This document shows, in pieces, positions 29,483 to 64,000 of a stretch of DNA of 64,000 nucleotides. Source of the DNA: Alphaproteobacteria bacterium (GTDB lineage: Bacteria; Pseudomonadota; Alphaproteobacteria; G965222575). The notes under the pieces were generated by a model. That model saw nothing but the letters and a program-made list of their open reading frames with translations. It was not told where the DNA came from and did no database searches. A program made the translations under genes and the position numbers. The number at the start of each line of letters is the position of its first letter. Positions within the stretch are counted from its first letter, which is position 1. Where the stretch lies: the NCBI GenBank assembly GCA_965222575.1, contig OZ244958.1, positions 352,001 to 416,000 on the forward strand. The letters run 5' to 3'.

Positions 29483-30674
29483 GCACGCCTCCTCCTATAC
29501 CTTGCCTCCTAGAAAATGCCTCCCTCGCTTCCCTATCCGTCATGGAAGATATCACATCCACAACACACCGCAATTCCTCATAAGAACTTTCCTCCTCTCT
29601 TTTTGTCTTCTCCTCCGTATAACTACGCAAAAGACCCCATACAATCTCTTTTTCCGCAGTGTCCATAGCATGTTCCGGATAAATCTCTTGCTCACAGGCA
29701 CGCAACCGTTTCAACACAGGCCATTTAGACGTATATTCCAACAGAGGCTTCCTAGGGAAAAGACCCTGATAGGTTAAAAATGTCTCTCTATTCTCTTCAA
29801 CCACCTTCAAAACTTGGTGAATGAGGTAGTCAATCACACGACTTTTATGTTTGAGAAATCTATCGGCTTTTTGTCCCACTATCGTCGGCACAGGGACTAA
29901 GTCGCGGAGAAACGCTATCACTTTGTCAAAGGAGAGTTTGTTCATCCTCCAAGCATCTTCTAAGTCACCAAGGAGATAGCAAATATCATCAGCCGCCTCC
30001 ATAAGCCACACCAAGGGATGGCGGGGAAAGCCCTTAGGAGTGTCTTCCTGTATTCCTATGGTGCGGATGATGGATTGAAAGGCTGGGGCGTCTTCTTGGA
30101 AGAGACCATATTTTTTAGAGGCGCCGTTATCTTTAGCGTGTAGGGCTTGCCAAGGATATTTTACGGAGGCTGTGAGAACTCCGCAGGTCAAAGACAGTCC
30201 TTCAAGGCGTGTTAAGATACGAAAGGTTTGGGCATTGCCATCAAAATGAAGGAATTCTGCGCGTTGCCCCTGATTCATCTTGTTGAGAAGATAGGAGTTA
30301 CGTTTAAACCATGCGCCAATGAGGAATTCTCCGTAGTGTCCGAAAGGGGGGTGTCCCACATCATGGACTAAAGCGGCTGCTGCAACAATACGTCCCACAT
30401 CAAGAGGATGAATGTCCTGATAATCCTGATGATACAGTTCGCCGACGAGATTCCCAAGGCTGCGTCCGACTCTCATGACCTCAAGAGAATGCGTAAGGCG
30501 GCGGCGGACAGTACTGTGGGCTTCGTAATCCGGAAAGACCTGTCGTTTATCGGCTAGTCGTCTGAAAGACGCAGAAAAAATAATCTTGTCAATATCCCGT
30601 GCAAAGGGCGGGCGGCGGGGGTCTTCTTGAGTGCTTTGTGCAGGAAAACGCTTCTTGGAAAAGAAATCAATCAT
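29475..30674 (-). CDS. dgt: dGTP triphosphohydrolase (HD family)
   Basis: SFRRLADKRQVF, RRLTHSLEV, HDVGHPPFGH, FDGNAQTFR, MEAADDICY. Confidence 0.9.
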   Translation of the reverse strand: MIDFFSKKRFPAQSTQEDPRRPPFARDIDKIIFSASFRRLADKRQVFPDYEAHSTVRRRLTHSLEVMRVGRSLGNLVGELYHQDYQDIHPLDVGRIVAAAALVHDVGHPPFGHYGEFLIGAWFKRNSYLLNKMNQGQRAEFLHFDGNAQTFRILTRLEGLSLTCGVLTASVKYPWQALHAKDNGASKKYGLFQEDAPAFQSIIRTIGIQEDTPKGFPRHPLVWLMEAADDICYLLGDLEDAWRMNKLSFDKVIAFLRDLVPVPTIVGQKADRFLKHKSRVIDYLIHQVLKVVEENRETFLTYQGLFPRKPLLEYTSKWPVLKRLRACEQEIYPEHAMDTAEKEIVWGLLRSYTEEKTKREEESSYEELRCVVDVISSMTDREAREAFSRRQGIGGGVRG

Positions 30675-36509: not shown

Positions 36510-37244
36510 TTACGGATTATGAGGAATGGTTCCTCCTCTGTTTGTGTCGATATCATCTATACCATAGACAGTAATGCGCAGGGTGCCTAGTAATTTCGAG
36601 GCATCTTTAATATTATGCTTTGTTCTGTAAGCAAAAAACTTCACCGGGTCACTCACTGTTAACTTTCCATAAACTGTGATTGTCCTTGCGTCTCCAACAT
36701 TTCCCAAGGCGGGTGGGTAACTACCATGTTCAAATAGCAAATAGTTCACCTCTTTCTCAAGAGGCTTAAACACCTCCAGTGGAGCAATCTGATTCCTCCT
36801 ACTCCCAGTGGACTGCTTCAGAGTGCCCCTGCCGCTGGTTTTTTTTAAAGTTAACTCTAACGCCACTCCCGCCTCTTTCAAATTAAGAGACCCCTCAATA
36901 TATGAAACCTTTATAAATGCATAAGAGCTATAAGTTGTCGAAGTACCAAACCCCCCGAAAACTTCCACCTCCGGTGCAAAAGTGAATACCCCTACCTGTG
37001 CCCAGTTACCAACAGGAGTGGCATTCTCACATTCTGTGATTCCATTCTCGTCTAACGCACACTCAATATTTTCCCCTTGATTCAGTTGTATCGGGGTCAC
37101 AGTATAAGCCCCAAAGTTTAGGTGTGTATCTACTGTAATGTCAAGCGCCGCTGCTAAGAGGAGTTGCCCTCCTAAGAGGAAACCTCCTAGGAGGAAACCT
37201 CCTATGGCAAGGTAACTGATAGAGATTTTGAAAGTCTTTTTCAT
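36510..37244 (-). CDS. Secreted pilin/adhesin-like protein (DUF4402/SCPU-like), cassette copy 1
   Basis: Signal peptide, HLNFG, Cys pair, VYGKLTV; paralogous to 39703-40407 and 43663-44401. Fold assignment is tentative. Confidence 0.7.
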   Translation of the reverse strand: MKKTFKISISYLAIGGFLLGGFLLGGQLLLAAALDITVDTHLNFGAYTVTPIQLNQGENIECALDENGITECENATPVGNWAQVGVFTFAPEVEVFGGFGTSTTYSSYAFIKVSYIEGSLNLKEAGVALELTLKKTSGRGTLKQSTGSRRNQIAPLEVFKPLEKEVNYLLFEHGSYPPALGNVGDARTITVYGKLTVSDPVKFFAYRTKHNIKDASKLLGTLRITVYGIDDIDTNRGGTIPHNP

Positions 37245-37280
37245 TGTCTATAGGCTCCTTTGTTGATGTTGCCTATAGAC

Positions 37281-37451
37281 GGGTTGCCTATAGACGGGTT
37301 GCCTATATAATAGGACAATTCCAAGCCCCTTGTCAAGACCCCCTAGGGGGGGGAAATCCTACTCCCTACGGACTTTATTGGGGGGGGAAACCCCTCCGCA
37401 AGAGTTTACTTGGGGGCAAGCCCCTAGGGGCAACCCGTCTATAGGCAACCC
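37281..37451. repeat. Perfect 23-bp inverted repeat pair (37281-37303 / 37429-37451)
   Basis: GGGTTGCCTATAGACGGGTTGCC and GGCAACCCGTCTATAGGCAACCC are exact reverse complements. Confidence 0.9.
37307..37336 (-). promoter_or_regulatory. sigma70-like promoter of cassette 1 (TTGACA-18-TATTAT); same sequence upstream of cassette 3
   Basis: Reverse strand TTGACAaggggcttggaattgtccTATTAT; repeated at about 44441-44470. Confidence 0.65.
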
Positions 37452-39705: not shown

Positions 39706-40407
39706 ATCGGTTGATGGAAATAAGTCCTTATGCTCACTATTAACCTCAAAAGCCAATGTGCCTAGTAATTTCGAGGCATCTTTAATATTATGCTTTGTTC
39801 TGTAAGCAAAAAACTTCAACGGGTCACTCACTATTAACTTCCCATAAACTTTGATTGTCTTTGGGGCGCTAGCGAGGATTGCACTTCTGTATACAAAACT
39901 ACCATCGATATACGCTAAATATGCCACCGGTGACTCAAGGGGCTTAAACACCGCCAGTGTAGTGTTAGTAGTCCCTCCAGAAAACAACGTATACAGCCCG
40001 CGCGTTGCATAAAAATGTAACTCTAACTCCACCCCTGCCTCTTTCAAATTAACAGACCCCTCAATATACGAAACCTTCATATATACAGTCTGCACCCGAT
40101 AGTCGGTGGGGTAAAGTCTTATAGAATCCGGCGAAATAGTGAATTCCCCTACCTGTGCCCAATCCCCGTAAGGAGTGGCATTCTTACATTCTGTGGTGTT
40201 GGCGTCATCACGCTTTAAGTCACACTCAATATTTTCCCCTTGATTGAGTTGTATTGGGGTCACAGTATAAGCCCCAAAGTTTAGGTGTGAAACTACGGCA
40301 ATGTCAGGCTCCACTGCTAAGAGGAGTTGCCCTCCTAAGAGGAAACCTCCTAGGAGGAAACCTCCTATGGCAAGGTAACTGATAGAGATTTTGAAAGTCT
40401 TTTTCAT
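39703..40407 (-). CDS. Secreted pilin/adhesin-like protein, cassette copy 2
   Basis: Signal peptide identical to copy 1; same conserved blocks; divergent intervening segments. Confidence 0.7.
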   Translation of the reverse strand: MKKTFKISISYLAIGGFLLGGFLLGGQLLLAVEPDIAVVSHLNFGAYTVTPIQLNQGENIECDLKRDDANTTECKNATPYGDWAQVGEFTISPDSIRLYPTDYRVQTVYMKVSYIEGSVNLKEAGVELELHFYATRGLYTLFSGGTTNTTLAVFKPLESPVAYLAYIDGSFVYRSAILASAPKTIKVYGKLIVSDPLKFFAYRTKHNIKDASKLLGTLAFEVNSEHKDLFPSTD

Positions 40408-40718
40408 TGTCTATAGGCTCCTTTGTTGATGTTGCCTATAGACGGGTTGCCTATAGACGGGTTGCCTATACGGGTTGGACAATTCCAAGCCCCTTGTCAA
40501 GACCCCCTAGGGGGGGAAAAAACCCTAGGGGGCCTATAGAAAACCCTAGGGGGCTAGCCCCTCCGCAAGAGTTTACTTGGGGGCTAGCCCCTAGGGGCAA
40601 CCCCCTAGGGAGAACCCCCCCCTACACCAACTTCAGAAAGCTCAATCACAAGAGGAAGAGTCCTTGAGTAGAGACAGTAAGTTTGTTAAAGTCTTTTAAG
40701 GGAAGACTTTCTGTTATG

Positions 40719-47873: not shown

Positions 47874-49523
<1,650 letters not shown>

Positions 49524-50167
49524 CCCCCAATAAGCCGCAACCCCTTAACCACAAGAACTTAAGGGGAATGCCTAACAAAGAAAGGGGGGAATGTGAAGGC
49601 GGCGGTATGCCTCCTGACATGGGTGGGATGATGTAACCCCCCAATAAGCCGCAACCCCCTTAACCACAAGAACCAAAGACAACCTCTTCTATGGGCGGTA
49701 TGGGCGGCGGTATGCCCTCCTGACAGGGGGGGATGATGTAACCCCCCAATAAGCCGCAACCCCCTTAACCACAAGAACCAAAGACAACCTCTTCTATGGG
49801 CGGTATGGGCGGCGGTATGCCCTCCTGACATGGGGGGGATGATGTAACCCCCCAATAAGCCGCAACCCCTTAACCACAAGAACTTAAGGGGAATGCCTAA
49901 CAAAGAAAGGGGGGAATCCCCTGTGCCTAGTCGCCAAGCGGCAGTATACTTAAAAGGGGCGTTTCCCTTTAAGAGAACCCATGTCTACAAAGTCACCTTA
50001 AGGATATCTCTTTGGTCGTCTCTTGCCTTATAGAACTTTAAGACGCCCTGCTGCTTGTTAAGAAAAAAAACCCGCACATCTCCCCACTAGCATAGACTTA
50101 AAGGAATAGTAATCTTGTTCGTTTAGAGTGACACCCATAACAAAACCTACAACCCTAACCCTCCTTC

Positions 50168-52974: not shown

Positions 52975-53826
52975 ATGAAATTTTTACGATATGGTGCTAA
53001 GGGAAAAGAGCAACCGGGCGTAGTAGACCGAAAAGGGAACATCAGGGATTTAAGCGCTTATCTTGCGAATATTACCCCGAACACACTGGAAGAACTCTTA
53101 GCATTAGACATTCCTCAGGACTTACCCCTTGTGAAAAGCCCTGTGCGTATAGGCTCTTGCCTCTCTTGGGTAAAGAAAATCATCTGCATTGGCTTAAACT
53201 ATCACGACCACGCAACAGAGATGGGCTTTGAAAGCTTATCAGAACCTATGTGTTTCCTCAAATCCCCGTCATCTCTATGCGGCCCCTATGACGATATCCT
53301 CTTTCCACCTAATGCACAACAGATGGACTGGGAGGTGGAACTAGGCATTGTCATAGGCAAGAGCGGGTTATGCATACCGAAAAATCAAGCAATGAATTAT
53401 ATCGCAGGCTATTGTCTGATGAACGATATATCGGAAAGAATGATGCAAATACAAAGAGGAGGGCAATGGACAAAGGGAAAAAGCTTTGATACTTTTGGGC
53501 CTATGGGGCCATGGCTCGTAACAAAAGAGGAAATCCCTAACCCACACAATTTAGATATCACGCTATCAGTCAATGGTAAGACAATGCAAAACAGTCATAC
53601 CTCTAAGATGATTTTCACCATTCCTTATATTGTCCACTACTTAAGTCACTTTATGAGTCTGCATCCCGGAGATGTTATCAGTACAGGCTCCCCTTCAGGC
53701 TCTGGACGCGGACAGTCTCCCATACAATACTTAGCCCCGGGTGATATCGTACAACACAGTATTGAAGGACTTGGCGCCGGAAAACAAAAATGCGTGGCTT
53801 GGCACGACAACGCCCGCACCATATAA
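52975..53826 (+). CDS. Fumarylacetoacetate hydrolase family protein
   Basis: ICIGLNYHDH, MDWEVEL, NDISER, KGKSFDTFGP. Confidence 0.93.
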   Translation: MKFLRYGAKGKEQPGVVDRKGNIRDLSAYLANITPNTLEELLALDIPQDLPLVKSPVRIGSCLSWVKKIICIGLNYHDHATEMGFESLSEPMCFLKSPSSLCGPYDDILFPPNAQQMDWEVELGIVIGKSGLCIPKNQAMNYIAGYCLMNDISERMMQIQRGGQWTKGKSFDTFGPMGPWLVTKEEIPNPHNLDITLSVNGKTMQNSHTSKMIFTIPYIVHYLSHFMSLHPGDVISTGSPSGSGRGQSPIQYLAPGDIVQHSIEGLGAGKQKCVAWHDNARTI

Positions 53827-54105
53827 GACTGCTGAACTTATCCTACCACGCACCCTTTGAGAGTCATCCCTCATCATTTTGGGGCTAATCCCTCCAAGAC
53901 TGCTCTCACTTATCACCACGCACCCTTTGAGAGTCATCCCTCATCATTTTGGGGCTAATCCCTTCAAGACTGCTCTCACTTATCACCACGCACCCTTTGA
54001 GAGTCATCCCTCATCATTTTGGGGCTAATCCCTTCAAGACTGCTCTCACTTATCACGCACCCTTTGAGAGTCATCCCTCATCATTTTGGGCTAATCCCTT
54101 TAAGA
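53825..54105. repeat. About 70-bp tandem repeat, 4 copies, between convergent genes
   Basis: AAGACTGCTCTCACTTATCACCACGCACCCTTTGAGAGTCATCCCTCATCATTTTGGGGCTAATCCCTTC starting at 53825, 53896, 53966 and 54036. Confidence 0.93.
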
Positions 54106-54133
54106 TGCACTCCTACGGCTCCCCCGCTTTTTC

Positions 54134-55878: not shown

Positions 55879-56904
55879 ATGAAAAAATCTGTGCGCCAGT
55901 ATCTGTTACGTCCTCCTCTGTGGACTCTCAAAGCCTTATTACCTCTTGGGCTTATAGTGCTTATTGTCTTTGAAATAGGGGGCTACTATAATCCCTTGAA
56001 ACAATGGCTCGATAGCGACCTTCTTGCCTTTACCATCGGGGGCGTTAGGCTCTCTCTTTACACAATTTTCAAGGGCATTCTTGCGTTTCTGATACTCTTT
56101 TGGCTATCGCTGATAGCCATTGGATTTTTCGATAAAAAGATTCAACACCATAAGAAATTACAATCTCAACATAAGGTCTTCTTAGAAAAATTGACCCGCG
56201 GTCTCATCTATACCTTGTGTGGGCTTTTGTTTCTTCAGATTCTTGGGATTAAGCTTGCGTCTTTAGCCATTTTAGGGGGAGCTGTTGGTATTGGTATTGG
56301 ATTTGGGCTACAAAAAATCGCCTCCAACTTCATCAGTGGCATTATCCTGATGTTTGAGCAGTCTCTGAAAATTGAAGACCTCATTGAACTCCAAGATGGC
56401 ACCACGGGATTTGTGAGAAAAATCCGCTCGCGCTACATTTTACTTGAAACCTTTGATGGCAGGGAAATCATGATTCCTAATGAAGAGTTTATTAATCATC
56501 GTGTGTTGAATTGGACCTTTAGCCACTCCAGAGGACGCATCCAAGTAGATGTAGGAATTGCCTACAACAGCAATATTGAAAAAGCCAAAGAGATTTTATT
56601 AGAAGCTGCTTCCCCCCACAGTCTCAAAGACCCGCCACCTATGTGCTATTTAAGACGTTTCAATGACAGTAGTATTGACCTCTCGCTTTTCTTTTGGATA
56701 AAGGATGTTGCTAAGGGACGTTTTCAACCCAAAAGCGAGGTCATGATGGAAATTTGGAAAAAGTTTCAAGAACACCACATCGAAATTCCTTATCCCCAAA
56801 GAGACCTTCATCTCAAAACACTCGCACCACTAGCACAGAAAGGAGAACACCAGAAAGAAAAGCGCGCCGAGGAGGACTCGAACCCCCGACTTCCAAGTTC
56901 GTAG
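55879..56904 (+). CDS. MscS-family mechanosensitive channel
   Basis: GAVGIGIGFGLQKIASNFISG, IPNEEFI, EIPYPQRDLHL. Confidence 0.92.
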   Translation: MKKSVRQYLLRPPLWTLKALLPLGLIVLIVFEIGGYYNPLKQWLDSDLLAFTIGGVRLSLYTIFKGILAFLILFWLSLIAIGFFDKKIQHHKKLQSQHKVFLEKLTRGLIYTLCGLLFLQILGIKLASLAILGGAVGIGIGFGLQKIASNFISGIILMFEQSLKIEDLIELQDGTTGFVRKIRSRYILLETFDGREIMIPNEEFINHRVLNWTFSHSRGRIQVDVGIAYNSNIEKAKEILLEAASPHSLKDPPPMCYLRRFNDSSIDLSLFFWIKDVAKGRFQPKSEVMMEIWKKFQEHHIEIPYPQRDLHLKTLAPLAQKGEHQKEKRAEEDSNPRLPSS

Positions 56905-56936
56905 CCTGGTACTCTATCCAACTGAGTTATCGGCGC
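56863..56936 (-). tRNA. tRNA-Arg(ACG)
   Basis: Reverse complement GCGCCGATAACTCAGTTGGATAGAGTACCAGGCTACGAACTTGGAAGTCGGGGGTTCGAGTCCTCCTCGGCGCG. Confidence 0.93.
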
Positions 56937-56982
56937 GAGATTCCAAAGTACTACAATCCGCAACAAAAGAAAAGCGCCTCCG

Positions 56983-57549
56983 ATGTCTAACACCCTGAAA
57001 ATCATCTCCCATGCCGTGGCAAAAGTCCTCCACGATTGCGCCAACAGCCTTGTCATCCTACAAAATCTCAAATACAACCCCTCGCCACAGCAAAGAGACC
57101 TAGCCCTCAAACACTTGGAAAATACACTCACTATCGCCGCTTTATCCTTCAGCTATGAAACCCCAGCTCCTCCTTGGACAGAGGTCATACAAACCCTACA
57201 ACACATCTTTCCCAACCTCTCACTCACCTCCCATCATCACACAGACCTCAAAGGCAACACTATCCCAATGGCCGTCTCCCTCATCGCCCAAATGGCCAAA
57301 AGCCTAAGAGGTACAGGACAGATTCTCATCCACTCCTCACCTGATACCTGCTCCATCAAAGCCCAAGGAGAAAAACTCGTACTCCAAGATGACTGCCTAA
57401 AAATCCTCACAACACCGCACCCATCCCCTCACAACTCCTCCTTCATCACCATGAGACTCATCAGACAATACCTGCAAGACAAAAAAATCTCTGTCTCTTA
57501 CAAAAAAGGACAACACTTAACCGTTTCCTTCCCAATCTTAAAAGACTAA
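56983..57549 (+). CDS. chpT: Divergent histidine phosphotransferase ChpT-like
   Basis: KVLHDCANS H-box resembles ChpT SRLCHDLISP; upstream of cheA with ctrA at the other end of the operon. Confidence 0.55.
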   Translation: MSNTLKIISHAVAKVLHDCANSLVILQNLKYNPSPQQRDLALKHLENTLTIAALSFSYETPAPPWTEVIQTLQHIFPNLSLTSHHHTDLKGNTIPMAVSLIAQMAKSLRGTGQILIHSSPDTCSIKAQGEKLVLQDDCLKILTTPHPSPHNSSFITMRLIRQYLQDKKISVSYKKGQHLTVSFPILKD

Positions 57550-57612
57550 GAACTTTAATAAAGTTTAAGCCATCAGCGCTAGAATAGACTCTTCACACGA
57601 AATCACTCGCTC

Positions 57613-59745
57613 ATGGATACAGAACTGCTCACCGAGTTTGCAGAAGAAAGCCTCGAGTCCTTGACAGCCTTAAACAATATGCTCTTGGACTTAGAGGAAA
57701 GCCATGACAAACAAGAACACACCAAGCTCATCGGTGATATCTTCAGAATCCTACACACCATTAAAGGTTCAGCAGGCTTTCTGAACTTCAAGGCCATCTC
57801 AACAATCGCCCATAACGCCGAAAGCCTATTAGACCAGATAAGAGAAGGGAAGAAAGACTGTGACAGCGACCTGATTACCACAATACTCAAAGCCTCTGCA
57901 CTGCTAGAGACACTTATCAAGAGCGCTAAAAATAACGCCGCCGAACCAGACCCCTTACCGGCCGACTTCAAGAAGATAGACACTGAACTCAAAACGGCTT
58001 GTGCGCAGCCTCCCCTGAAAACGCCTCCTACAACAACAGCAGAAGAGAAAGACAAGGAGGAACAGACAACAAAAACGCCTCCTACAACAACAGAAGAGAA
58101 AGACAAGGAGGGGCAGAAACCGTCCTCTTTTCATTCCACTACTGGTGAACAGAAGAGTGTGCGGGTCTCTTTACAATTATTGGAACGTTTAATGAATCTC
58201 ACAGGGGAACTTGTGTTGAGTCGCAATAGCATGCTGGAGAAAAAGTCTTTGGAAGGGCAGTGTTTACAGCAAATGTCCTCTGTGATTTCAGAATTACAGG
58301 AAACGATTCTCAAAACCCGCATGCAGCCTATTGAAAATGCTTGGAACACGTTACCGGGACTTGTGCGGCAAATCAGTAAATCTTTCAACAAGTTTGCAAA
58401 AATCACAATGGAAGGTGGTCACATTGAGGTAGACAGACAGGTTTTACAGGCTATTAAAGACCCTCTTGTGCATTGTGTACGGAATGCGTTAGATCATGGC
58501 ATTGAAACGCCTCAAGAACGGAAGGCTTTAGGGAAAAGCCAAACGGGGTCTTTAACTCTGAAAGCGCGTCAGGAAAGCGGTTATATTGCCATTTCACTAC
58601 AAGATGATGGCTGTGGTGTTTGCCCAGAGCGTTTGAGGGAAAAACTTCTCAATGAAGAGCTTGTGTCTTCTGAAGAATTAAAGCAATTATCCTATGAAAA
58701 GCAGCTACAATACTTGTTTGCGCCGGGCTTTTCAACGGCGCAGCATCTTTCTTCTGTCTCTGGAAGGGGAGTCGGGTTAGATGTGGTGAAAACCAATGTA
58801 GAGGGCGTAGGGGGTGCTGTCACCTTACAATCAACTCCACAGCAAGGCTCTTGTATGGAAATTGTGATTCCGATCACCTTAGCCATTACTTCTGCCATGA
58901 TTGTCTCCTGTGGAGACATTAAAGTGGTACTGCCGAAATTTTCCATCAGTGAAGTTGTACGTTTAGGCAGTGGCAAGACAAAAGCGAGTCTTAAAACCTT
59001 GCATCATACGCCTTTGTTGTCTTTAAGAGAGCAACTGATTCCGCTTCTTTCCCTTCAGGACATACTAGGCTTGACGGACAGAAAGGAGATGTTTGTTGTG
59101 TTACTCACTTACGGAAGACATCTGTTTGGTCTTCTAGTAGAAAGCATTGTCACCACAGAGGAAATTGTAGCCAAACCCCTTGTGCCGCCGCTTCGGTCTT
59201 TAGATATCTACTCAGGGAGCACCTTATTAGGAGATGGTTCTGTCGCCATGATTTTAGACCCTAATACGCTTGCTAAGCGAGTCGGTCATCTGAGCGCACT
59301 CAAAAAAGAAGCCTCCTCTTCTCTTAGGCAGACCTCAGAGGATCCACAGATGGTAATTTTTCGTTTGCCAGAAGATGATAAGCTCTATGCTTTACCGCTA
59401 GAATCGGTCAAACGGATAGAAGACTTGACAGCCCTAGACCTCATGAAAAGCCATCACGGCTGGGTTTTACGATACCAAGACACAATCTTGCCTCTTTACT
59501 GCTGGCCCTTGGAGAAAACAGAGACCATCCTTAAGCTCCAGCATAGGAATCAAAGAATAGTGATTCTCTGCCACAAAGACATACAAAGCGCCCTCATCAT
59601 TGAAGACATCCTAGAGATGTCTCCGATTCCGCCTATACAATCCTCTGCCTCTCCCAAACCCGGACTCCTGGGACATGCTGTCCTAAAGGGAAAAATTTTA
59701 AGCATTTTAGACCCAGCGTTCCTCACGTCTTTGAACTCACCATGA
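57613..59745 (+). CDS. cheA: Chemotaxis histidine kinase CheA
   Basis: FRILHTIKGSAGFL (Hpt), HCVRNALDHG, SGRGVGLDVV, two CheW-like domains. Confidence 0.96.
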   Translation: MDTELLTEFAEESLESLTALNNMLLDLEESHDKQEHTKLIGDIFRILHTIKGSAGFLNFKAISTIAHNAESLLDQIREGKKDCDSDLITTILKASALLETLIKSAKNNAAEPDPLPADFKKIDTELKTACAQPPLKTPPTTTAEEKDKEEQTTKTPPTTTEEKDKEGQKPSSFHSTTGEQKSVRVSLQLLERLMNLTGELVLSRNSMLEKKSLEGQCLQQMSSVISELQETILKTRMQPIENAWNTLPGLVRQISKSFNKFAKITMEGGHIEVDRQVLQAIKDPLVHCVRNALDHGIETPQERKALGKSQTGSLTLKARQESGYIAISLQDDGCGVCPERLREKLLNEELVSSEELKQLSYEKQLQYLFAPGFSTAQHLSSVSGRGVGLDVVKTNVEGVGGAVTLQSTPQQGSCMEIVIPITLAITSAMIVSCGDIKVVLPKFSISEVVRLGSGKTKASLKTLHHTPLLSLREQLIPLLSLQDILGLTDRKEMFVVLLTYGRHLFGLLVESIVTTEEIVAKPLVPPLRSLDIYSGSTLLGDGSVAMILDPNTLAKRVGHLSALKKEASSSLRQTSEDPQMVIFRLPEDDKLYALPLESVKRIEDLTALDLMKSHHGWVLRYQDTILPLYCWPLEKTETILKLQHRNQRIVILCHKDIQSALIIEDILEMSPIPPIQSSASPKPGLLGHAVLKGKILSILDPAFLTSLNSP

Positions 59746-60203
59746 AGACCAAAGCCCTCGTCTCAATTCTGTTACATAACAACCTCTTTGGCATTGATGT
59801 TCAACATGTTTACAACATTTTAAGGCACACACCCTTAAACTTAGTTCCTAGAAGTCCAAAAGGAATCGCAGGACTCATTAACTTAAGAGGACAAATTGTG
59901 CCCGCTATGGATTTACATTCTCCTTTACAATTCCCCCCTCCTACGCCTGAACAGATGAAAAAATTGTGCCACGTTATTATTAAAGTCAAAGAAGACCCCT
60001 ATAGTCTTCTAGTAGAAAAAGCCTCCTCTGTGATTGCAATACAAAACTTTCATCTCTTGCCAACACCCACAGGAAGCACTACAGGATGGAAACGTTTTTG
60101 TCAACAAATTGCCTATTTAGGAGACGAAATGATACCAATGTTGAATGTTGAAGCCTTAGTAGAGAACATGAGCACCCACAGCACACAGGTGACGGACAAG
60201 TGA
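59742..60203 (+). CDS. cheW: CheW coupling protein
   Basis: VPRSP..IAGLINLRGQIVP. Confidence 0.9.
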   Translation: MKTKALVSILLHNNLFGIDVQHVYNILRHTPLNLVPRSPKGIAGLINLRGQIVPAMDLHSPLQFPPPTPEQMKKLCHVIIKVKEDPYSLLVEKASSVIAIQNFHLLPTPTGSTTGWKRFCQQIAYLGDEMIPMLNVEALVENMSTHSTQVTDK

Positions 60204-60565
60204 GCCATATTCTCATCGTTGATGATTCCAATGTCATCCGCAAAGTAGCAAAGCGGATACTAGCTGAGCTACGATTCGATACAACAGAAGCTTGTAACGG
60301 CAAGGAAGCACTGATAGCGTGTAGACAGCATATGCCTGATGGGGTGTTATTGGACTGGAATATGCCGGAAATGGACGGCTTGGAGTTTTTACACCGCTTG
60401 AGGAAACTCACCGGAGGGGATGCCCCGAAAGTTCTCTTCTGTACAACAAATTCACAGATGCAACATATCCGCAAAGCTATAGCAGCGGGCGCCAATGAAT
60501 ACATTATGAAACCCTTTGATAAGGAAATTATTCAAGATAAATTCACAGCTGTGGGATTGCTATAA
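60200..60565 (+). CDS. cheY: Chemotaxis response regulator CheY
   Basis: IVDDS..IRKVA, LLDWNMPEMDG, GANEYIMKPFD. Confidence 0.93.
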   Translation: MSHILIVDDSNVIRKVAKRILAELRFDTTEACNGKEALIACRQHMPDGVLLDWNMPEMDGLEFLHRLRKLTGGDAPKVLFCTTNSQMQHIRKAIAAGANEYIMKPFDKEIIQDKFTAVGLL

Positions 60566-60634
60566 CCCTTTTGATGCTAGGTAACTTCTCCACAGATATG
60601 GTTTTTTGACAATAAGCAAGCTTTCACCCTCTCT

Positions 60635-61216
60635 ATGCCCGGCGGCGATATTTTAGTGTTTGCATCATCAGCAGGCGGTACAAAGGGGTTGCTAGAAATT
60701 TTTTCCTCTCTTCCCAAACTCAAAGTGCCTATGTTGGTCACACAGCACTTACCAGCCACCCTGCTTGGGCGATTCGCCTACCAACTTCACTGCGCAGGCC
60801 CCAACACCTTAAGTATTCCCCACCAGCCGCTCCCACTCCTTGAAGGACACGCCTATCTCGCCCCCCACAACGCCCATCTCATCATCAGCAACACCCCTAG
60901 CAAATACGTCACCATCATCCCCCCAACCTCTCCCGACGAACTCTGTCCTTCCATGGATAAAATGACAACTTCCGCCGCTCAAGCCTTCAAAAACCGTACT
61001 TGGGCTGTCTTTCTCTCCGGCCTCTGTATCGACGGACTCAACGGCGCAAGAGCAATCCACCACCATCAAGGAACTATCCACCTCATCGAAGAATCCCAAA
61101 CAACCTCCTGGTCTATGCCAAGAAAAATCGCTCAGGAAAACCTAGCCCCACCGCCTATCACAACAAAACAGCTCATCAACACACTCATCAGAGCAAATAT
61201 GACAGAGGCAACATGA
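60635..61216 (+). CDS. cheB: CheB methylesterase domain without receiver domain
   Basis: ASSAGG, TQHLP, CPSMD, LSGLCIDG, WSMP. Confidence 0.8.
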   Translation: MPGGDILVFASSAGGTKGLLEIFSSLPKLKVPMLVTQHLPATLLGRFAYQLHCAGPNTLSIPHQPLPLLEGHAYLAPHNAHLIISNTPSKYVTIIPPTSPDELCPSMDKMTTSAAQAFKNRTWAVFLSGLCIDGLNGARAIHHHQGTIHLIEESQTTSWSMPRKIAQENLAPPPITTKQLINTLIRANMTEAT

Positions 61217-61995
61217 AACAACAAACGTTGCAAACACTGCTCCACACCCTACACACGCAAAGCGGCATAAAAATGGGAGAAGAAAAACAATACTTCCTCA
61301 TGCAACGCCTCAAACCCCTCATGGAGCAACACTCCATCCCCTCCTTTGAAGCCCTAGCAGACCTCACCAGAAAACCTACTCCCCTCAGAAACGATATGAT
61401 AGAAACCCTCATGATAGGAGAAACCTCCTTCTTTAGAGGCCGTGAAACCTTCCGCTTGCTCAAGCAAACCGTCTTACCAAACCTTCTGAAGACAACACAA
61501 AACCTAAGACTCTGGGTCGCCGCTTGCTCCTCAGGACAAGAAGCCTACAGTCTCGCAATGACACTGAAATCCTTGCAGGGAAAATGCCAAACCTTTATAG
61601 GAAGCGACCTCTCAACAAAAGCCCTCAATAAAGCACGCAAAGGACGATTCTCTCACTTCGATGTCCAACGCGGCTTGCCAATCCAACACCTCATCACATA
61701 CTTCCACAAAGACAAAGACTCATGGATCATCAACAAAGACTTAAAACAAACCATCACTTGGAAGAGAATTAATCTCATAGAAAACTTCCATTCCTTAGGA
61801 AAATTCCACCTCATCTTCGCGCGCCACGTCCTCATGTATATGTCCAATAAGTGGAAAGGCAATATCCTAGAAAGACTCATAGAAGCCCTCAATACCAACG
61901 GCATCCTAATCCTCGGCGCAGAAGAAGGATTATGCCTCAAGGAAAGAGGAGACTTTCACCCCCTCGGCGGCGCCATTTACCAAAAACACCTCTAA
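61213..61995 (+). CDS. cheR: Chemotaxis methyltransferase CheR
   Basis: ETSFFR, WVAACSSGQEAYSLAM, VQRGLP, FHLIFARHVLMY; ATG overlaps the cheB stop. Confidence 0.92.
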   Translation: MKQQTLQTLLHTLHTQSGIKMGEEKQYFLMQRLKPLMEQHSIPSFEALADLTRKPTPLRNDMIETLMIGETSFFRGRETFRLLKQTVLPNLLKTTQNLRLWVAACSSGQEAYSLAMTLKSLQGKCQTFIGSDLSTKALNKARKGRFSHFDVQRGLPIQHLITYFHKDKDSWIINKDLKQTITWKRINLIENFHSLGKFHLIFARHVLMYMSNKWKGNILERLIEALNTNGILILGAEEGLCLKERGDFHPLGGAIYQKHL

Positions 61996-63266
61996 GGAAC
62001 CCCCCCGCTACAGAGTAGCTTTCTCGCGCACCACGTCCTCATAACTATGTCCAATAAGTGGAAAGGTGATTCTAAGGAACCCCCCCCGCTACAGAGTAGC
62101 TTTGGCACCTTAATCCTCGGCACAGAAGAAGGATTATGCCTCAAAGAGGAGACTTTCACGCCCTCAGCAGTGCCATTTACCAAAAACACCTCTAAGGAAC
62201 CCCCCCCCGCTACAGAGTAGCTTTCTCGCGCACCACGTCCTCATGACTATGTCCAATAAGTGGAAAGGTGATTCTAAGGAACCCCCCCCGCTACAGAGTA
62301 GCTTTGGCACCTTAATCCTCGGCACAGAAGAAGGATTATGCCTCAAAGAGGAGACTTTCACGCCCTCAGCAGTGCCATTTACCAAAAACACCTCTAAGGA
62401 ACCCCCCCCGCTACAGAGTAGCTTTGGCACCTTAATCCTCGGCACAGAAGAAGGATTATGCCTCAAAGAGGAGACTTTCACGCCCTCAGCAGTGCCATTT
62501 ACCAAAAACACCTCTAAGGAACCCCCCCCCGCTACAGAGTAGCTTTGGCACCTTAATCCTCGGCACAGAAGAAGGATTATGCCTCAAAGAGGAGACTTTC
62601 ACGCCCTCAGCAGTGCCATTTACCAAAAACACCTCTAAGGAACCCCCCCCCGCTACAGAGTAGCTTTGGCACCTTAATCCTCGGCACAGAAGAAGGATTA
62701 TGCCTCAAAGAGGAGACTTTCACGCCCTCAGCAGTGCCATTTACCAAAAACACCTCTAAGGAACCCCCCCCCGCTACAGAGTAGCTTTGGCACCTTAATC
62801 CTCGGCACAGAAGAAGGATTATGCCTCAAAGAGGAGACTTTCACGCCCTCAGCAGTGCCATTTACCAAAAACACCTCTAAGGAACCCCCCCCGCTACAGA
62901 GTAGCTTTGGCACCTTAATCCTCGGCACAGAAGAAGGATTATGCCTCAAAGAGGAGACTTTCACGCCCTCAGCAGTGCCATTTACCAAAAACACCTCTAA
63001 GGAACCCCCCCCGCTACAGAGTAGCTTTGGCACCTTAATCCTCGGCACAGAAGAAGGATTATGCCTCAAAGAGGAGACTTTCACGCCCTCAGCAGTGCCA
63101 TTTACCAAAAACACCTCTAAGGAACCCCCCCCCGCTACAGAGTAGCTTTGGCACCTTAATCCTCGGCACAGAAGAAGGATTATGCCTCAAAGAGGAGACT
63201 TTCACGCCCTCAGCAGTGCCATTTACCAAAAACACCTCTAAGGAACCCCCCCCGCTACAGAGTAGT
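61991..63266. repeat. Repeat-spacer tandem array: 12 copies of a ~32-bp core separated by cheR-derived segments A (x2, ~48 bp) and B (x9, ~87 bp)
   Basis: Core TCTAAGGAA(C7-9)GCTACAGAGTAGCTTT; A resembles cheR 61817-61863 and B resembles cheR 61900-61990. Confidence 0.93.
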
Positions 63267-63977
63267 TTCCTTCTCATCCTTTGAATCATCAACCTCTACG
63301 GGCGGGAGATTCCTCAAAAAATACCCTTTCCCCCATGTAGTCCCTATATAGGAAACATCCCCTAAATATTGCTGTAGCTTCTTCCTCAACTTACAGATAA
63401 ACACATCAATAATTTTAATCTCTGGCTCATCTATTCCGCCGTATAAGTGATTCAAAAACATTTCCTTCGTTAACGTCATGCCTTTGCGTAAGGAAAATAA
63501 TTCTAAAATGCCATACTCCTTCAACGTTAAATGAATCGGCACATTGTCCACCGTCACAGAGCGTTTATCAAGATTCACACACAATTTCCCCGTTCTAATG
63601 ACCGAATCTGGAAACCCCTTAGAACGCCGCACAATAGCAACTGTGCGTGCGAGAATCTCATCCTTATCCCAAGGCTTCGTCATGTAATCATCCGCACCAT
63701 GCCCTAAAGCCGTTACCTTATCCTTCACAGACTTACTTCCTGATAACACCAAAACAGGAGTCCTGACCTTCTTACTGCGCAAGGACTTCAACACATCATA
63801 GCCATGGATATCTGGAAGTGATAAATCCAATAAGATAATGTCATAATCATAGATTCTGCTTAAGTCAATACCTTCTTCCCCGAGGTCTGTGCTATAAAAC
63901 ACAAACCCTCTATTGATAAAAGCCTTCTCCAAAAGCGTTACAACTTGACAATCATCCTCTATCACTAAAACACGCAT
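63255..63977 (-). CDS. ctrA: Cell-cycle master response regulator CtrA
   Basis: [67 protein letters not shown]. Confidence 0.96.
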
Positions 63978-64000
63978 GCTGCGTCCTCCATCGAGTACCA

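Follow-up and report, generated by a model that had tools for sequence, protein, structure and literature searches.

A tandem array of cheR and ctrA gene ends, probably a composite minisatellite, in a repeat-rich alphaproteobacterial genome

The convergent genes cheR and ctrA of an alphaproteobacterium (GenBank assembly GCA_965222575.1, contig OZ244958.1) are separated by an array of short repeated pieces. The array was analysed within a window of 64,000 nt, positions 352,001 to 416,000 of the forward strand; coordinates below are those of the window unless they are given as genome coordinates. The genome is a single contig of 1,215,846 bp and is 97.6% complete. With good confidence, the array can be described as a composite long-period minisatellite that is built from dead copies of the ends of cheR and ctrA. 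It is probably neutral and without a function of its own, and most likely represents the largest product of an array-making process acting on the whole genome, and not a device peculiar to this gene pair.

Composition of the array and source of its pieces

The array is intergenic and consists of head-to-tail units of high identity between the stop codons of cheR and ctrA, which are 1,259 nt apart. When positions 61781-63300 are split on the recurrent core (R, 32-34 nt, about 33 nt), 12 cores, two pieces of type A and nine pieces of type B are obtained. Their order is R-A-R-B-R-A'-R-B, followed by seven further R-B and a closing R. The left part of the core starts with the last base of the final sense codon of cheR and the TAA stop of that gene; four bases, seven to nine C in a row and one G come next. 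The right part gives the ctrA stop and last codons in reverse complement. Each core retains the ancestral convergent junction (stop, 12-14 nt, stop). The cores start at positions 61991, 62071, 62191, 62273, 62393, 62513, 62634, 62755, 62876, 62996, 63116 and 63237, and their C-runs measure, in the same order, 7, 8, 9, 8, 8, 9, 9, 9, 8, 8, 9 and 8. This anatomy, including the order and the counts, is as it had been described in a first-pass annotation made from the sequence. Chance is excluded, since the window contains 12 occurrences of a 16-nt stretch of the core where 100 shuffles lead one to expect 0.03. A genome-wide search for core and unit returned matches at this locus alone.

Reading from left to right on the plus strand, the first core R1 (61991..62022, C7) contains the cheR stop (61993-61995). 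It is followed by a mixed part (62023..62305) made up of A1, R2 (C8), B, R3 (C9), A2 and R4 (C8). Together with the end of cheR and R1, the mixed part forms a repeat with a period of 202 nt, for which Tandem Repeats Finder (TRF) reports 2.6 copies and 95% matches. The remainder (62306..63236) holds eight B pieces with the seven cores R5-R11 between them, in units of 120 nt where the C-run is C8 and of 121 nt where it is C9. For this B-R part TRF gives a period of 121, 8.2 copies, 99% matches and a score of 1950, the top score in the whole genome. The 11 inner cores are all followed by the same four extra bases. The last core, R12 (63237..63269, C8), departs from them in these four positions (2 mismatches); it is the native junction, and on its right it closes with the genuine 3' end of ctrA. 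Including the four post-core bases, the A pieces, which stand after R1 and R3, are 52 nt long (48-52) and one base apart, and the B pieces, which stand after R2 and R4-R11, are 91 nt long (87-91) and identical in all nine cases.

Both kinds of piece derive from the final 179 nt of cheR. The segment copied as A (A0) lies at 61817..61863 by global alignment (61817-61859 by local alignment), and A differs from it by 5 or 6 substitutions in 47 positions. The segment copied as B (B0) lies at 61900..61990 and continues directly into the first core; because B0 runs straight into R1, the boundary from B to R within the array is native cheR sequence. The 36 nt between them (M, 61864..61899) are missing from the array. 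The two pieces had already been recognised as non-adjacent parts of cheR, with a skipped stretch put at about 38 nt.

The B pieces are 92% identical to their source. Of 87 aligned bases 7 are substituted, and the loss of 4 nt (61939-61942) shifts the reading frame; the earlier description had likewise named several substitutions and a deletion of 4 nt. Five of the 7 substitutions fall at codon positions 1-2 and 4 of the 7 alter the amino acid; judged from the sequence, this is a pattern unlike that of a gene drifting under selection. G>A changes (plus strand) account for 3 of the 7 substitutions in B and for one or two more in A, and they fit the local strand bias. Throughout cheR, the array and ctrA the GC skew lies between -0.22 and -0.36, with a positive AT skew. 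More broadly, at positions 56500-64000 the plus strand is rich in A and strongly rich in C, the GC skew falling as low as -0.5, irrespective of which strand is coding.

Since a diverged and frameshifted B is present in nine identical copies, the spare copies must have decayed before the B-R unit was amplified or homogenised. The proposal that divergence preceded amplification is therefore upheld. Only three types of novel junction occur, R>A, A>R and R>B, the last being identical in 9 of 9 units. The array is not a plain stutter of the gene, again in line with the first-pass annotation. Sequence similarity at the junctions is an imperfect 5 nt at A>R and 1-2 nt at R>A, with none visible at R>B, although later mutation may mask it.

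The genes on either side are intact, and their identification as cheR and ctrA holds. On the left, cheR (61213-61995, plus strand) encodes 260 aa with matches to PF01739 and PF03705, the PF01739 CheR match scoring 151.7 bits over residues 70-250. On the right, ctrA (63255-63977, minus strand) converges on cheR and encodes 240 aa with matches to NF045991, PF00072 and PF00486. The NF045991 match spans positions 1-223 of a profile of 224 and scores 338.1 bits, narrowly missing the cut-off of 350; the next-best family reaches 150 bits. From ctrA the repeat takes in the stop codon (63255-63257) and the last three or four codons only. These belong to a C-terminal tail beyond the part in common with relatives, which align to residues 1-223 up to 1-234. 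A chemotaxis cluster on the plus strand closes the window and includes, besides cheR, cheA (57613-59745), cheW (59742-60203), cheY (60200-60565) and a CheB homologue (60635-61216, 193 aa). The CheB homologue consists of the methylesterase domain only, without a receiver domain, and its stop overlaps the cheR start codon.

Tandem repeats elsewhere in the genome and in other bacteria

The array is one of many. TRF arrays with a period of at least 40 number 108 and cover 4.1% of the genome. With the parameters of PMC3287509 (TRF 2/7/7, score 50, period up to 500), 378 rows are found, summing to 98,289 bp or 8.1% of the genome (4.5% non-redundant). In Table 4 of the same paper, Ehrlichia ruminantium is listed with 201 rows and 6.3% tandem repeats, although redundancy may have been handled differently in those totals; Wolbachia wMel is listed with 1.6% and Escherichia coli with 0.38%. 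The E. ruminantium value is given there as the highest bacterial figure reported at the time. The repeat load of the present genome is at or above this tabulated value, the comparability of redundant totals being uncertain.

Under a more stringent definition (period at least 40, at least 85% matches, at least 2 copies), 61 rows remain. Coding repeats make up many of the arrays: of these rows, 28 lie inside open reading frames (ORFs), 16 overlap the end of an ORF of at least 150 aa and 17 are intergenic, so that 33 of 61 are outside or at the edge of ORFs. The cheR-ctrA locus contributes two of the 16 end-overlapping rows. A Pfam check of 19 ORFs that flank 10 other arrays assigned a family to 16 of them, and 8 of the 10 arrays overlap a Pfam-supported gene end. 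At least nine other arrays, groEL's among them, include the ends of identified genes. Arrays extend over the 3' ends of genes for an amino-acid kinase, the E1-beta component of a 2-oxoacid dehydrogenase complex, an HpaP-like protein, a release factor, UbiA and a Tim44-like protein. Others extend over the 5' ends, where the start call is less certain, of genes for the E2 component of a 2-oxoacid dehydrogenase complex, a pterin-binding enzyme and SHMT. Besides convergent junctions, arrays are found at tandem and divergent ones.

Several of these loci deserve description. At 49480-49900 the 3' end of groEL (Gly-Gly-Met tail, stop and downstream sequence) is repeated in tandem about 3-4 times. Its units have two alternative tails and contain G7 and C5-6 runs, and the array is of the same gene-tail kind as that between cheR and ctrA. 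At 53825-54112 an array of 70 bp x 4.2 fills the spacer between convergent genes of the FAA-hydrolase family and for a sodium:solute symporter, starting from the left gene's stop codon. A 140-bp x 2.0 duplication (genome 21220-21500, 99% identical, not a multiple of 3) separates an ORF with the amino-acid-kinase domain from the next one, which has the ACT domains; it looks as if an aspartokinase-type gene had been split or frameshifted by this tandem duplication. A pair of 15-bp mini-arrays occurs twice, at 37168-37307 and 40331-40470, 3,163 bp apart, implying a larger duplicated segment. At genome 119800-125200, a Mu-type portal gene, which suggests the remains of a prophage, is located 86 bp from an array of 84 bp x 9 (98% identical).

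Long G/C homopolymers are also abundant, with 147 runs of at least 8 against about 14 expected (arithmetic from base composition). Sixty of the 147 are outside called ORFs, i.e. in about 10% of the genome, and 87 are inside, as far as crude ORF calls allow. Such homopolymers were considered as drivers of array formation, but the link is unsupported: a run of at least 6 is present in the unit at about 6 of some 32 non-coding or edge loci, against about 5 expected from a non-coding background of 1.5 runs per kb (arithmetic).

By analogy, the closest described objects appear to be the long-period variable-number tandem repeats (VNTRs) that lie between genes in Wolbachia and the tandem repeats of E. 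ruminantium. VNTR-141 has 7.3 copies in wMel with periods that are 99% identical, and some periods of VNTR-105 carry internal deletions (PMC3287509). The repeats of E. ruminantium have been attributed to slipped-strand mispairing together with active expansion and contraction (PMC3287509, PMC10710844). On these accounts, the cheR-ctrA array shares with them units of about 100-140 bp that are 98-99% identical, at least 7 copies over about 1.3 kb, an intergenic position and internal deletions in some units. Further shared features are a host genome that is small and unusually laden with tandem repeats, and slipped-strand mispairing as the proposed origin. It differs from the repeats described there in that its unit is built from both flanking gene ends and contains both stops. 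Some Wolbachia periods are described with hairpins, whereas the cheR-ctrA unit has a 5-bp counterpart only. Finally, VNTRs are defined by copy-number polymorphism, while the present array is known from one assembled sequence.

A possible history of the array

In the duplication-amplification model for bacteria, a tandem duplication arises first and is then amplified through unequal exchange. The cheR-ctrA array resembles the products of this model in repeating one illegitimate junction (R>B) in every unit, in being edged by intact genes with partial copies between them, and in that the amplified units are identical in a genome that encodes recA (mutS and rho are encoded as well). In contrast to the model, the unit is only 120 nt long and does not include a complete gene, amplification set in when the first duplicate was already 8-13% diverged, and two unit types coexist.

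On the most economical reconstruction, the array would have begun with an illegitimate tandem duplication, by template switch or slipped joining, of a segment A-M-B-R of about 206 bp. Its ends would lie at about codon 202 of cheR and, across the spacer, within the final codons of ctrA. This would have made the R>A junction. As the duplication spans a tail-to-tail junction, neither gene would have been broken and it could be tolerated. The spare copies would then have drifted without constraint. Loss of M-B from one of them, at the imperfect 5-nt similarity, would give A>R, and R>B could have arisen by deletion or by a second duplication, leaving two kinds of unit, a short one of A-R and one of B-R. 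A block of 202 nt may subsequently have been duplicated through homologous unequal exchange or replication slippage, and B-R expanded to nine identical copies by unequal exchange or slippage. Slippage of the C-run between 7 and 9 would account for units of 120 or 121 nt. Illegitimate joining, which includes template switching, is supported, with three novel junction types, in line with the earlier suggestion that the array is a template-switching product; a single complex event of this kind is conceivable, but would leave the divergence before amplification unexplained.

Several points weigh against this interpretation. The order of the steps is itself a reconstruction, and with weak microhomology at A>R and none visible at R>B the joining mechanism is not pinned down. 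Searches based on CheR, in genome and metagenome contigs, found no related locus, the one metagenome match being of 16 residues on an unrelated contig and left unused, and the 30 comparison genomes are related at the level of the class, none being closer. Gene calls in the genome survey were crude (longest ORFs), and overlaps of arrays with 5' ends are possibly overstated. Nine identical units in the top-scoring array could reflect selection or a very recent expansion. Lastly, no terminator was found between the ctrA stop and cheR; on this sequence evidence the array may be transcribed, and a role is possible.

Alternative explanations and significance

The last of these points leads to the idea that the array is regulatory. 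Read-through from ctrA would give a long 3' untranslated region (UTR) with nine copies antisense to the 3' end of cheR, or else the array might insulate two genes whose stops were merely 12-14 nt apart in the ancestral arrangement; in either case copy number would tune the effect. We regard this as unlikely. In its favour, no consensus terminator is met from the ctrA stop until a terminator-like hairpin inside the cheR coding sequence (61946..61965, minus strand, within B0), which is in the orientation of ctrA. The B copies, with their 92% identity to the end of cheR, carry this hairpin with its T-rich tail shortened by the 4-nt deletion.

However, a consensus scan revealed no promoter-like or terminator-like sites inside the array, and neither the cheR nor the B version of the hairpin folds better than shuffled sequences (z 0.3 and 0.6). 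Folds of the 121-nt unit and of the bare 33-nt core, on both strands, are likewise ordinary (z -1.2 to +0.3 against shuffles), the one recurrent element being a short hairpin (5-bp stem, 3-nt loop) overlapping the ctrA stop. The array has no Rfam match at E<=1. CtrA boxes (TTAA-N7-TTAA) are absent from the array, and there is one, far away, in the whole window against 1.9 expected. The array contains ORFs of 55-128 aa, and its 120-nt C8 units hold a frame open on both strands; for a unit of 40 codons the probability of an open frame by chance is estimated at roughly 0.4 per strand. Two of these ORFs were compared with Pfam and belong to no family. Nothing in these sequence tests points to a function of the array. 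Moreover, similar arrays at unrelated gene ends throughout the genome agree better with a mutational process than with a dedicated regulator, and rho could end untranslated read-through. That the array is kept and not just tolerated, whether as a copy-number-tunable antisense 3' UTR of ctrA or as an insulator, thus seems very unlikely from its sequence. If it were true, slippage of units and C-runs would tie chemoreceptor methylation to the master regulator of the cell cycle in an organism of reduced genome.

It is also rather improbable that the array is an assembly artefact, or at least unreliable in copy number, in the sense that it exists while its length, the order of its units or its C-runs were invented or distorted by the assembler. 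Units that are 99-100% identical over 1.27 kb exceed short reads, and C8 versus C9 is typical of homopolymer miscalls. But stutter would not account for copies that differ consistently from cheR, nor for two A pieces that are one base apart. The assembly is also a single contig of high completeness, and the 87 of 147 long G/C runs that fall inside ORFs, crudely called as these are, suggest that homopolymers are mostly correct. Assemblers tend to collapse such arrays rather than to expand them.

The array had been called CRISPR-like (clustered regularly interspaced short palindromic repeats). As a description of layout this stands, a direct repeat of about 33 nt alternating with longer pieces, but CRISPR identity was rejected. 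Two genuine CRISPR-Cas loci in the same genome serve as internal controls. The first array (genome 26864-28954) has a 32-nt repeat in 29 exact copies with 27 of 27 spacers unique, mostly of 27-42 nt, and adjoins a Cas1 gene (29563-30414). The second (genome 1126425-1127481) has a 36-nt repeat in 13 exact copies with 11 of 11 spacers unique, of 29-30 nt, and adjoins another Cas1 gene (1128028-1128723). By contrast, the pieces between cheR and ctrA are of two types, nine of them identical and two 1 nt apart, are 52 or 91 nt long and are self-derived (cheR 61817-61863 and 61900-61990), and no cas genes are nearby.

Ectopic integration by Cas1-Cas2 can be imagined to create a new CRISPR array ('neo-CRISPR'), in which the 33-nt core would serve as repeat and A and B as inserted spacers. 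Two Cas1 proteins are encoded in the genome, and one genuine repeat is 32 nt long. There is hardly any chance that this is correct. The pieces (48-52 and 87-91 nt) do not have the size of the genuine spacers, all come from a gene 130-200 bp away, and integration is unneeded where the boundary from B to R is native. The similarity of the core to either genuine repeat does not exceed that of shuffled repeats, and the cas1 genes are about 385 and 713 kb distant, each beside its own array.

Equally negligible is the notion of a silent store of alternative CheR tails: partial gene-end copies of 92% identity adjoin an expressed gene, as in the cassette systems pilS and msp2, but as gene-conversion donors for the CheR C-terminus nine identical B copies offer no diversity, their 4-nt deletion would change the frame so that the stop is read through, and A and B lie inside the conserved methyltransferase domain, which extends as far as residue 250 in a protein of 260.

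Viewed as a minisatellite of dead gene ends, the cheR-ctrA array is an ordinary and probably unstable kind of bacterial repeat. It provides a clear example of a tandem duplication at a convergent junction that survived, decayed and was later amplified, and it is likely to be a hypervariable typing marker for the lineage. The genome is more notable than the locus, combining a high repeat load, long G/C homopolymers and strong strand bias at a size of 1.2 Mb, and it may be suited to the study of repeat expansion working against genome reduction.

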